Positions 7,365 through 16,161 of a DNA stretch of 64,000 nucleotides are shown here, piece after piece. Within the stretch, counting starts at the first letter, position 1, and each line of letters starts with the position of its first letter. This DNA is from Trueperaceae bacterium. Lineage in GTDB: Bacteria > Deinococcota > Deinococci > Deinococcales > Trueperaceae. The notes beneath the pieces are model-generated. The model searched no databases and was not told the DNA's origin. It saw nothing but the letters and a program-made list of their open reading frames with translations. Both the position numbers and the translations under genes were made by a program. Location of the stretch: positions 62,677-126,676 of the forward strand of contig JAXHMC010000031.1 in the NCBI GenBank assembly GCA_034521635.1, given 5' to 3'.

Positions 7365-10358
7365 GTTTCAATCCTCAGCCGCCCCGAAGGACGGCTGCAA
7401 CTGCGTGCTCTTGCTGGATGAGGCGCACGATTGGCTGTTTCAATCCTCAGCCGCCCCGAAGGACGGCTGCAACTCGATGTCCGGGTGCTCGATGTCGAGG
7501 TACGCCGCGTTTCAATCCTCAGCCGCCGCGAAGGACAGCTGCAACGTGTCGGCCCACACTAGCGTGTCATTAACGCGAACGTTTCAATCCTCAGCCGCCC
7601 CGAAGGACGACTGCAACCCGGGTCGCCGAGCGGTAACTCGGACGGCTCGGTGTTTCAATCCTCAGCCGCCCCGAAGGACGGCTGCAACTTCGAGCGCGAT
7701 GGTAACGCCGGGGTTGTCTTTGGTGTTTCAATCCTCAGCCGCCCCGAAGGACGGCTGCAACGTCTTGCTCGGCGTCTGCATTACGGACGCTTGGATGTTT
7801 CAATCCTCAGCCGCCCCGAAGGACGGCTGCAACTCGCGGGTCTGTATAACGTCGCTATCGGCCCGGCGCTGTTTCAATCCTCAGCCGCCCCGAAGGACGG
7901 CTGCAATCAGCATAATGCACCTCGGTTAGGGCGAGCCCCCGTAGTTTCAATCCTCAGCCGCCCCGAAGGACGGCTGCAACGGGCGAGTCACGCTCGACAC
8001 TGACTGGATGTTTAAGTTTCAATCCTCAGCCGCCCCGAAGGACGGCTGCAACACGGTTAACTTTGCGGAGCTGACTGTCGCAAACATGTTTCAATCCTCA
8101 GCCGCTCCGAAGAACGACTGCAACGAGGCCTGATGACGCCTGGTAGTCGCGCTACAAATGTTTCAATCCTCAGCCGCCCCGAAGGACGGCTGCAACCAGC
8201 CTGTTGGATCACGGCTATAGGCGCGATTTCGTCGTTTCAATCCTCAGCTGCCCCGAAGGACAGCTGCAACGTGTCGGCCCACACTAGCGTGTCGTTAACG
8301 CGAACGTTTCAATCCTCAGCCGCTCTGAAAGACGGCTGCAACGTCGAGATGTGCGGGTCTATAAAGCAGGCGACCGAGTTTCAATCCTCAGCCGCTCCGA
8401 AGGACGGCTGCAACTTTACGGCTTCTTGATTCGGCTCGTTCGGTATCATGTTTCAATCCTCAGCCGCCGCGAAGGACGGCTGCAACACGAATGTAGAGCA
8501 GTTAGGTGAGGCATTCAAGTTTCAATCCTCAGCCGCCGCGAAGGACGGCTGCAACCTCACAATCCAGGCGCCCGACTGCCAGGCGGGGGGGTTTCAATCC
8601 TCAGCCGCCCCGAAGGACGGCTGCAACTCGCGTTTCTGCCGTTCTGTGTAACATACTGTTACGTTTCAATCCTTAGCCGCTCCGAAGGACGGCTGCAACT
8701 AGGGTGAGCGAGGCCGTTCCCGCCCGCCGAAAGTTTCAATCCTCAGCCGCCCCGAAGGACGGCTGCAACCATGCCGCCTGTTTCGTGCAGGACTTGAGCT
8801 AGGTTTCAATCCTCAGCCGCCCCGAAGGACGGCTGCAACTCGCAGGCGTGTCGACATCCCACTTTTTACCCATATTTCAATCCTCAGCCGCCCCGAAGGA
8901 CGGCTGCAACTCTTTGCGGGCCATCTTCTCTCTGTACTCCCGCTCGTTTCAATCCTCAGCCGCCCCGAAGGACGGCTGCAACCATCGACACAGGTGAGGA
9001 AGCCTTCGCCGTACCGGTTTCAATCCTCAGCCGCCCCGAAGGACGGCTGCAACCGGCGTGTACCTACACGACCACGCGGTTAGCGATGTTTCAATCCTCA
9101 GCCGCCCCGAAGGACGGCTGCAACCACCAAAGACCTCGCTAAAGGGCAGTTCACGTATAAGTTTCAATCCTCAGCCGCCGCGAAGGACGGCTGCAACTTG
9201 ATGATTAGGCTTTGCTCGCCAAGTTTATCATTGTGGTTTCAATTCTCAGCCGCCCCAAAGGACGGCTGCAATTAGCGGCGGGCGTGCCGAACAGCGCGGT
9301 CATACCCGCGTTTCAATCCTCAGCCGCCGCGAAGGACGGCTGCAACCCGGTCGAAACTGAGATTATTCGCGTGCACTTCTGTGTTTCAATCCTCAGCCGC
9401 CGCGAAGGACGGCTGCAATCCGCTCCCGGCTCAAGGCGCGTATAAAAAACATCAGTGTTTCAATCCTCAGCCACCCCGAAGAACGGCTGCAACACGAATG
9501 TAGAGCAGTTAGGTGAGGCATTCAAGTTTCAATCCTCAGCCGCCCCAAAGGACGGCTGCAACGTGCCCAAGACACCGCGTTCGCCCTTAGCCGCGAAGTT
9601 TCAATCCTCAGCCGCCCCGAAGGACGGCTGCAACGCCACGTGCCGACGTAACGCAGCGGGTTAGCAGCGTTTCAATCCTCAGCCACCCCGAAGGACGGCT
9701 GCAACCTGAATTACGAGGGCCGCACGACGATCATCACCTCGTTTCAATCCTCAGCCGCCCGGAAGGACGGCTGCAACGTCGAGAGCGTCATCGAGAACGA
9801 AAGAGCCTACGATGTTTCAATCCTCAGCCGCCCCGAAGGACGGCTGCAACAAGCCCGATTGAAGTCACCGCAGGAAACCGCAAAGCGTTTCAATCCTCAG
9901 CCGCCCCGAAGGACGGCTGCAACTGGGCGTCGCCACAAAACAGTGGCGTCTGGCTAGAGTTTCAATCCTCAGCCGCCCCGAAGGACGGCTGCAACGACCG
10001 CGTGGCCGAACACCTCATCGTGCTTACCCTTGTTTCAATTCTCAGCCGCCCCGAAGGACGACTGCAACGTAGGAACGAGCGTTGAGGCAATCGTGAGCCT
10101 CATCGTTTCAATCCTCAGCCGCCCGGAAGGACGGCTGCAACGCGCCAACTGAAGCGGCAACCGGAGCCGTCTTCTTGTTTCAATCCTCAGCCGCCCCGAA
10201 GGACGACTGCAACCGCGTCTCTTCGTTGCGGACCCAGTCGATACCGGCGTTTCAATCTTCAGCCGCCCCGAAGGACGGCTGCAATCCGCGAACCGACCAC
10301 GGAGACGGGGCCAGACAAACCGTTTCAATCCTCAGCCGCCCCGAAGGACGGCTGCAAC
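7365..10358 (-). CRISPR. CRISPR array: 42 repeats of 37 bp, 41 spacers of 32-37 bp
   Basis: Plus-strand consensus repeat GTTTCAATCCTCAGCCGCCCCGAAGGACGGCTGCAAC at ~72-bp periodicity. The reverse complement ends ...GGATTGAAAC, as type I-C repeats do, so transcription runs high to low coordinates, co-directional with the cas genes. About 20 of the 42 repeats carry 1-3 substitutions. Confidence 0.97.

Positions 10359-16161: not shown

Follow-up and report, generated by a model that had tools for sequence, protein, structure and literature searches.

A probable interference-only type I-C CRISPR-Cas locus in a Trueperaceae genome, with mutated repeats and without cas4-cas1-cas2 or a conserved leader motif

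The closest described counterparts of the locus considered here are canonical type I-C loci of CRISPR-Cas (short palindromic repeats, clustered and regularly interspaced, with their associated genes), as found in a sub-clade of Deinococcota with repeats of 37 nucleotides (nt). In these loci, e.g., as carried by plasmid pDAETH-1 of Deinococcus aetherius or by a Trueperaceae metagenome-assembled genome (MAG; GCA_040905665, here locus L001), the genes run cas3-cas5c-cas8c-cas7c-cas4-cas1-cas2, with no cas6, followed by a leader and then by an array of 37-nt repeats on the same strand. Loci L003, L008, and L010 are canonical as well. The ‘window’, i.e., the whole 64-kb stretch of Trueperaceae bacterium contig JAXHMC010000031.1 that was analyzed, shares with this sub-clade the effector gene set and its order, a repeat which forms a 9-bp hairpin and ends in GGATTGAAAC, and an array downstream on the same strand. 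It differs in being without cas4-cas1-cas2, i.e., the ‘adaptation’ genes, without the hairpin (GCGCGAACC...GGTTCGCGC) which in relatives lies next to cas2, and without the motif TTCGCR at 53 nt upstream of the first repeat. It differs also in possessing a 117-bp gap rather than an approximately 180-bp leader after cas2, and in that its repeats are heavily mutated. We read this as a type I-C locus that is interference-only and holds a ‘frozen’ array, a locus whose ancestor was canonical and whose interference genes are intact, a reading which we hold to be probable though well short of assured.

Partial CRISPR-Cas loci are already recognized, and the window represents a further case rather than a new variant. 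An adaptation module is absent also from Cas1-less, Tn7-like CRISPR-associated transposons (CASTs) and from type IV systems, which are without Cas3 nuclease activity, possess tniQ/tns or dinG/csf genes along with short arrays, and are found in a mobile-element setting (PMC8616872). The window, in contrast, combines an intact Cas3 and housekeeping neighbors with a 41-spacer array. It belongs to neither group, and readings of the locus as a CAST or other mobile element, or as type IV, were rejected on the first two of these grounds.

On the minus strand of the window the order is cas3-cas5c-cas8c-cas7c, then the 117-bp gap, then the array (Table 1). That order, the spacing, and the counts of 42 repeats and 41 spacers are exactly as the original prediction, made from the same DNA, had given them. 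The locus is type I-C, as seen from Cas8c, Cas5c, Cas7, a single-chain HD-helicase Cas3, and a hairpin repeat on the cas strand. Cas5c (TIGR01876, 149 bits vs a cut-off of 85), Cas8c/Csd1 (TIGR01863, 343 vs 219, spanning residues 3-578 of 607), and Cas7/Csd2 (TIGR02589, 347 vs 182) all score above NCBIfam curated cut-offs. Cas3 matches the NCBIfam models of the Cas3 HD domain (87 bits) and the Cas3 helicase core (118 bits), and upon alignment with relatives it is seen to have kept the HD motifs as well as PTGGGKT, VLDEAQ, and TATQP. Cas7c is 62-73% identical to its relatives and its gene ends with the stop codon TAG (10476-10478). No Cas6 and no extra gene were found between cas3 and the array, and the four Cas proteins are numbered consecutively (MDZ7704713-716).

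Table 1. Features of the type I-C locus, with positions as counted along the window
Feature	Position	Strand	Description	Protein accession
cas3	13924..16161	-	745 amino acids (aa); fused HD nuclease and superfamily 2 (SF2) helicase, intact	MDZ7704716
cas5c	13195..13905	-	236 aa; endonuclease of type I-C acting on the CRISPR RNA precursor (pre-crRNA)	MDZ7704715
cas8c/csd1	11372..13195	-	607 aa; large subunit, type I-C signature	MDZ7704714
cas7c/csd2	10476..11372	-	298 aa; backbone subunit, last gene ahead of the array
Residual leader	10359..10475	-	117 bp; no cas4/cas1/cas2 remnant, no TTCGCR at -53
Conserved leader segment GACGAGAACCTTGACAA	10384..10400	-	17-nt exact match to the L003 leader
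CRISPR array	7365..10358	-	42 repeats of 37 nt and 41 spacers of 32-38 nt
Duplicated 32-nt spacer	8487..8518 and 9494-9525	-	Identical copies; flanking repeat variants differ
Duplicated spacer	7546..7580 and 8271-8305	-	Copies one transition apart
Spacer	7474..7508	-	Ribonucleotide reductase alpha-subunit (nrdA)-like

On the minus strand the repeat reads GTTGCAGCCGTCCTTCGGGGCGGCTGAGGATTGAAAC, with copies counted at no more than three mismatches to these 37 nt (0 expected in shuffles). It folds at -18.2 kcal/mol into a hairpin with a 9-bp stem and a UUCG loop, trailed by 11 nt (AGGATTGAAAC). This is a type I-C repeat, that is, a stable hairpin plus an 11-nt 3' tail ending in ATTGAAAC, which shares the strand of the cas genes. 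Its length, 37 nt rather than the common 32 nt, is common to the whole sub-clade. The Rfam family CRISPR-DR9 matches on the minus strand as well, at 39 bits, which is below the gathering score of 45 bits. A reversed orientation of the array was considered and rejected, given the strand of that CRISPR-DR9 match and that the arrays of relatives are oriented in the same manner.

Neither cas4, cas1, nor cas2 was found in the 64 kb by tblastn with the proteins of relatives (best E-value 0.06, versus 4e-142 for a Cas7 control). Remnants of these genes were not found either, as sought with profile hidden Markov models (HMMs) of 53-62 relatives among six-frame segments of at least 25 aa (best E-value 0.4), and Pfam and NCBIfam scans of approximately 45 among the long open reading frames (ORFs) of the window yielded no further cas gene. 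The absence of all three genes from the 64 kb, which had been claimed at the outset, is upheld by each of these approaches. What the locus contains, that is, is intact effector genes and an array with no adaptation genes, i.e., a partial locus. It is not a complete, autonomous I-C locus, there being no cas4-cas1-cas2 downstream of cas7.

This loss is derived, since the closest relatives, with Cas8c proteins that are 50-59% identical to that of the window (59% being the best relative in the databases), carry cas4-cas1-cas2, a leader of approximately 180 bp, and 37-nt repeats belonging to the same family, in every case for which the gene context is known. Where Cas8c identity is highest (59%), in the relative seen as L005 and L006, a PIN-domain gene and a helix-turn-helix (HTH) gene lie between cas3 and cas5c (L005 4083-5022, L006 1569-2508), and these would seem to resemble a toxin-antitoxin pair.

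When metagenome contigs were scanned with an alignment of Cas7, 80 loci were obtained, which were pooled with loci fetched earlier. Of those with at least 700 bp downstream of cas7 (n=64), 58 are canonical as far as the contig reaches, four show partial deletions, and in two, L045 and L082, the array follows cas7 directly. The partial deletions consist of a cas4 N-terminus joined to a cas1 C-terminus, plus cas2 (L009), a cas1 C-terminus plus cas2 (L041), cas4 only (L056), and a truncated cas1 (L079). On three shorter contigs, L043, L062, and L087, a repeat is found 26-139 nt after cas7. The effector set cas3-5-8-7 is complete in L043, L062, and L082. As five other I-C contigs display this cas7-to-array layout, along with the four partial deletions, loss of the adaptation module is recurrent in type I-C, with the window being one more instance. 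These other adaptation-less loci, i.e., the L043/L062/L045 clade, L082, and L087, resemble the window in that the array comes directly after cas7c, with no TTCGCR at -53, and L082 and L087 resemble it as well in their degenerate repeats. They differ in that their Cas7 proteins are only 51-55% identical to that of the window, with gaps of 26-139 bp, and the L043 clade differs also in its 139-bp leader, which keeps the first hairpin, and in its clean repeats. The other adaptation-less loci and the window are independent events. Within L041, after the truncated cas1 and cas2, a spacerless, head-to-tail array of an approximately 24-nt unit (GGTGAGCGGCAGGTTGACTC...) is present at 8785-9100. It occupies the site at which the CRISPR array would be expected, with a normal array found 4 kb further on.

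Type I-C leaders are reported to carry subtype-specific motifs, at fixed spacings, which are needed for integration (10.1101/2023.05.26.542337). Among the canonical relatives, leaders measure 179-186 bp after cas2, and in loci with repeats of 35-37 nt three features may be distinguished. These are an inverted repeat, GCGCGAACC...GGTTCGCGC, forming a complementary hairpin directly after cas2, a CTTGACAA-like segment approximately 100 nt upstream of repeat 1, and TTCGCR, usually as GGTTCGCGCAAA, at exactly -53/-54 from repeat 1. The last is found in 14 of 18 loci with 35-37-nt repeats (L001, L003, L007-L010, L012, L013, L024, L034-L036, L056, and L088), with 17 of those 18 possessing cas4, cas1, cas2 or remnants of all three, and L056 possessing cas4 only. 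It is found at -53 in 0 of 6 adaptation-less loci (p = 0.0016 vs 14/18), and the window lacks TTCGCR throughout the 110 nt that precede repeat 1. Some loci with 32-nt repeats have a related TCGCR at the same distance from repeat 1. TTCGCR at -53/-54 is probably a docking element, putatively for the integrase or for a host factor, and we infer that the array of the window, besides being deprived of its integrase, no longer has its docking signal.

Only the CTTGACAA-like feature, of the three, is kept in the gap of the window. There, GACGAGAACCTTGACAA matches exactly a portion of the L003 leader (chance expectation approximately 1e-5), which in L003 lies approximately 100 nt upstream of repeat 1, and CTTGACAA-like motifs are seen also in the leaders of L009, L012, L013, and L001. 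Within GACGAGAACCTTGACAA is a -35-like TTGACA (10385-10390), a hexamer ending 26 nt before repeat 1. A scan for terminator-like sites between cas7 and the array found none, and the fold of the 117-nt gap as RNA is not significant (z = +1.46). Of the ‘clean’ deletion of adaptation genes that the original prediction had offered, deletion itself holds up well, as judged from the canonical relatives, from the partial-deletion intermediates, and from the lack of remnants. ‘Clean’ does not, as approximately 65-75 bp of repeat-proximal leader were lost as well.

Acquisition copies the first repeat, and a growing array is expected to have unmutated repeats next to its leader. Deviations from the consensus are seen, for the window, in 23 of 42 repeats (55%), at 0.86 substitutions per repeat, and variants are spread over the entire array, with the leader-adjacent repeats 2-5 included. 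In 28 comparator arrays, 0-16% of repeats are mutated, with one exception (L012, with 10 repeats, at 30%), and variants there are mostly leader-distal. Of these comparators, 27 stand beside an adaptation module (24 full as far as the contig reaches; L009, L079, and L056 partly deleted), with the 28th being the array of the adaptation-less contig L045, which has clean repeats. Two other adaptation-less arrays, L082 and L087, are degenerate like that of the window, such that repeat degeneracy is associated with adaptation-gene absence (Fisher p = 0.007) among lineages which are few and not fully independent. The array would seem not to be still extended, since its leader-end repeats are mutated whereas new spacers bring with them a fresh copy of the repeat, and this points to an array that has long been frozen rather than one refreshed in trans.

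The 36 repeat substitutions consist of 28 GC-to-AT transitions and eight G-to-C changes at loop positions 17/18, which is a mutational spectrum. Nearly all of the repeat variants are predicted to keep the hairpin, two of them via compensatory pairs (C9T/G22A and C12T/G19A), and the 11-nt handle holds only 4 of the 36 substitutions. The array appears also to have undergone internal duplication followed by point divergence, given its duplicated spacer pairs. With the near-identical pair (7546-7580/8271-8305), C9T is present in the leader-distal flanking repeat of both copies (repeats at 7509 and 8234), and this looks like an old segmental duplication which has since diverged.

The four interference genes (5.7 kb) have all kept open frames, each of full length by comparison with relatives. 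With neutral drift of these 5.7 kb simulated, using the per-GC-site rate taken from the repeats, all four remained open in 0.7% of simulations if the 36 substitutions are treated as independent, or in 13% if only the 16 distinct types are counted. This supplies a modest argument that selection may have kept the effector genes. The Cas proteins of the window keep 85-95% of those positions which are invariant in relatives (95% for Cas5c), values that are the lowest or near-lowest in each alignment, where the window is also the most divergent member.

With regard to possible targets, the nrdA-like spacer matches nrdA of Rhizobium phage RHph_X66 over 32 of 35 positions (E-value 6e-3). When translated, this spacer gives (A)VYLDIEH(P/Q)DI, a conserved motif of ribonucleotide reductase. 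The phage gene is a homologue of the real protospacer rather than the protospacer itself, the true target may be a gene of a phage or else the nrdA of the host, and the 5' flank of the match, TGT rather than TTC, is in such a homologue uninformative. When the whole array was searched against INPHARED phages, no other spacer match was found. A plasmid search gave no credible protospacer, i.e., only a few weak, spacer-length matches to ordinary genes (E-value of at least 0.2), with matches instead mainly to other arrays with related repeats (Deinococcus, Thermus, Streptomyces). In IMG/VR, the seed patterns of four spacers, with every sixth position left free, had no match, nor was the exact repeat present there. 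Of the phage or plasmid targets for which the original prediction had proposed searching, a weak nrdA homologue has emerged and no true protospacer. Its mention of gene regulation gains no support from the window, where no spacer matches outside of the array beyond 18 nt.

The history that we favor may be outlined as follows. An ancestral locus would have been laid out as cas3-cas5c-cas8c-cas7c-cas4-cas1-cas2-leader-array. One or more deletions would then have taken cas4-cas1-cas2 along with two parts of the leader, the hairpin next to cas2 and the 65-75 bp nearest the repeats, the latter including the motif which relatives have at -53 and which presumably is needed for integration. Acquisition would have stopped, with the array, now frozen, then gathering GC-to-AT repeat mutations, one or more point changes in spacers, and internal duplications. 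Transcription of the array could be via read-through from the cas operon, which is plausible because neither a consensus promoter nor a terminator separates cas7 from the array, or instead could start from the retained TTGACA segment. Cas5c would cut each repeat at the foot of its hairpin, which is mostly preserved, with the 11-nt handle AGGAUUGAAAC left behind, and Cascade along with Cas3 would still act upon targets of the old spacers. We infer, that is, that the system is still capable of interference and that this array is served by no second adaptation module. The anatomy, the lack of adaptation genes in the window, the derived character of their loss, the decayed repeats, and the missing leader motif are shown.

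A number of points weigh against that reading. Stem changes in the repeats are pair-preserving in 13 cases and pair-breaking in 10, by our own per-repeat count, which is no clear sign of selection upon the hairpin. Repeat variants also recur in blocks (G18C six times), and recombination between strain variants, rather than time since last acquisition, could explain a part of the heterogeneity. A strict sigma-70 scan of the gap found no promoter and no -10 partner for TTGACA. Invariant-position retention by Cas3 is 0.85, vs 0.90-0.99 in relatives, and low retention in general could reflect relaxed constraint, or else simply the position of the window as an outgroup. Finally, a cas1-cas2 module may exist elsewhere in this MAG, beyond the 64 kb.

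That last point leads to the alternative of adaptation in trans, i.e., that cas4-cas1-cas2 located elsewhere in the same genome, such as beside a type III or CARF module, still extends the array. The exact repeat of the window is found in one species-representative genome, that of Deinococcus murrayi DSM 11303, where an array of eight repeats comes after a CARF-domain gene, cas4, cas1c, and cas2, with a canonical leader, -53 motif included, in between, such that compatible, stand-alone modules do exist. Sharing of one adaptation module within complex CRISPR-Cas loci is known, and several effector modules sharing one such module is common (Bernheim et al. 2019, PMC7145637). With these organizations the window shares an effector module plus array without its own cas1-cas2, as well as, for D. 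murrayi, an identical repeat, and it differs in that no second module is present within the 64 kb and in an array decay which speaks against current use. An active array should be clean leader-proximally, whereas here repeats 2-5 are mutated, as are 55% overall, and the leader is without the -53 motif. When the 120 closest relatives of Cas1 from D. murrayi were considered, furthermore, 0 of 5 NCBI-sourced proteins among them fall within the accession range of the MAG, a test which is weak. Adaptation in trans we accordingly consider to be quite unlikely. Of the two possibilities that the original prediction left standing, deletion is therefore the better supported, with supply in trans disfavored by the mutated repeats and the lost leader motif, and the finding by which it could have been overturned, an identical repeat beside cas4-cas1-cas2, is seen in D. 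murrayi, a different organism, rather than in this genome. In D. murrayi itself (L007, NZ_AXWT01000032, 502-4215), the CARF-domain protein (TIGR02619) is encoded directly upstream of cas4-cas1c-cas2, no I-C effector genes were found within the 8 kb examined, and the adaptation module may be one that is shared with a type III system.

The locus could instead be a non-functional relic, disused following adaptation loss and with both cas genes and array drifting towards loss. Consistent with this are the heavy decay of the repeats, the low standing of the window's Cas proteins in retained invariant positions, the lack of any close spacer match in the phage, plasmid, and IMG/VR searches, and the lack of a clear promoter. 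Yet the four ORFs are open, with catalytic motifs intact, which neutral drift would leave so in just 0.7-13% of cases, most repeat variants still fold, and the handle has been largely spared, and a relic is in our estimation unlikely. Repurposing of an interference-only system, towards gene regulation or guided transposition, has in its favor solely that adaptation genes are absent, which is common to such systems. Cas3 nevertheless has both its nuclease and its helicase motifs, the 64 kb yielded no tniQ/tns, integrase, or plasmid gene, no spacer matches elsewhere in the window, and an array of 41 spacers is long as compared with the short arrays of repurposed systems, leaving this explanation barely tenable. 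Capture by a mobile element, also raised by the original prediction, fares no better, with housekeeping flanks and no mobile genes found in the 64 kb. There is, lastly, the prospect of artefact, that is, of a mis-joining of cas7 to the array within the MAG contig where the true genome has cas4-cas1-cas2. The source is indeed a metagenome-assembled genome, and CRISPR arrays are prone to mis-assembly. The cas7/array junction, though, lies in unique sequence rather than in a repeat, the cas7-to-array layout recurs in five unrelated contigs, and repeat decay together with leader-motif loss fit a real and old event. An artefact at this junction is very unlikely because the window is without any N and because an independently assembled Logan contig (L091, SRR26473340), 99.7% identical over the 3' end of cas8c and the whole of cas7, continues 9 bp beyond the cas7 stop codon with the gap sequence of the window, not cas4. 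The assembly gap which the original prediction named as a way that it might fail has consequently not materialized.

Taken alone, the interference-only locus matters little, loci without adaptation genes being well documented. It does provide a clean natural example, readable from sequence alone, of adaptation genes gone, leader motif gone, repeats drifted, and effector genes open. Repeat heterogeneity in combination with the -53 motif could serve as a cheap indicator, requiring nothing besides sequence, of continuing spacer acquisition. The most useful by-product is the joint loss of TTCGCR and cas1-cas2 in six loci, which makes of this motif a candidate integrase-recognition element for the I-C clade with 35-37-nt repeats. 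A bolder proposal, speculative and rather doubtful in our view, would be that loss of the adaptation module and of the -53 motif is a recurrent, selectively maintained end state of type I-C, with effectors long under purifying selection and supplying hard-wired immunity against conserved targets, such as nrdA-like genes of phages, or instead some other crRNA-guided role, and with TTCGCR serving as the integrase docking site.

The genes flanking the locus are ordinary chromosomal ones, i.e., aldehyde dehydrogenase, DinB, a Crp-family regulator, glycosyltransferases, iron-chelate ABC transport, aroA, cmk, and NAD kinase, and family scans of long ORFs found no integrase, transposase, plasmid, or tniQ/tns genes in the 64 kb. 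AroA of the window is 100% identical to MDZ7704741, a protein of a Trueperaceae MAG. Upstream of cas3, within 2.4 kb (16162-18555), are three small plus-strand ORFs (16408-16656, 16668-17057, and 17566-18186), none of which matches a Pfam family, with the third without an NCBIfam match as well. On the other side, 265 bp separate the last CRISPR repeat from the point at which the aldehyde dehydrogenase gene starts, and these include 3.5 copies of a 13-nt unit, CGTGGTGTTAAAC (7233-7278), which may be a regulator-binding site. On the plus strand, at 19235-20360 within the ORF 18556-20457, a 342-bp tandem repeat (3.3 copies, 72% matches) encodes the repeated PPC (pre-peptidase C-terminal) domains of a 633-aa protein of the DVUA0089 family. 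An MRB1590-like ABC_ATPase is split across two neighboring minus-strand ORFs (60430-62446), with 61472-62446 encoding ABC_N and the start of the P-loop domain and 60430-61464 the remaining P-loop domain along with the C-terminal domain, which suggests a frameshift or a pseudogene. On the plus strand, at 55777-60327, is the gene for a 1516-aa protein that combines a Ser/Thr kinase, an nSTAND1 NTPase, and approximately 12 WD40 repeats, a STAND-type architecture which could be one of signaling or of defense.

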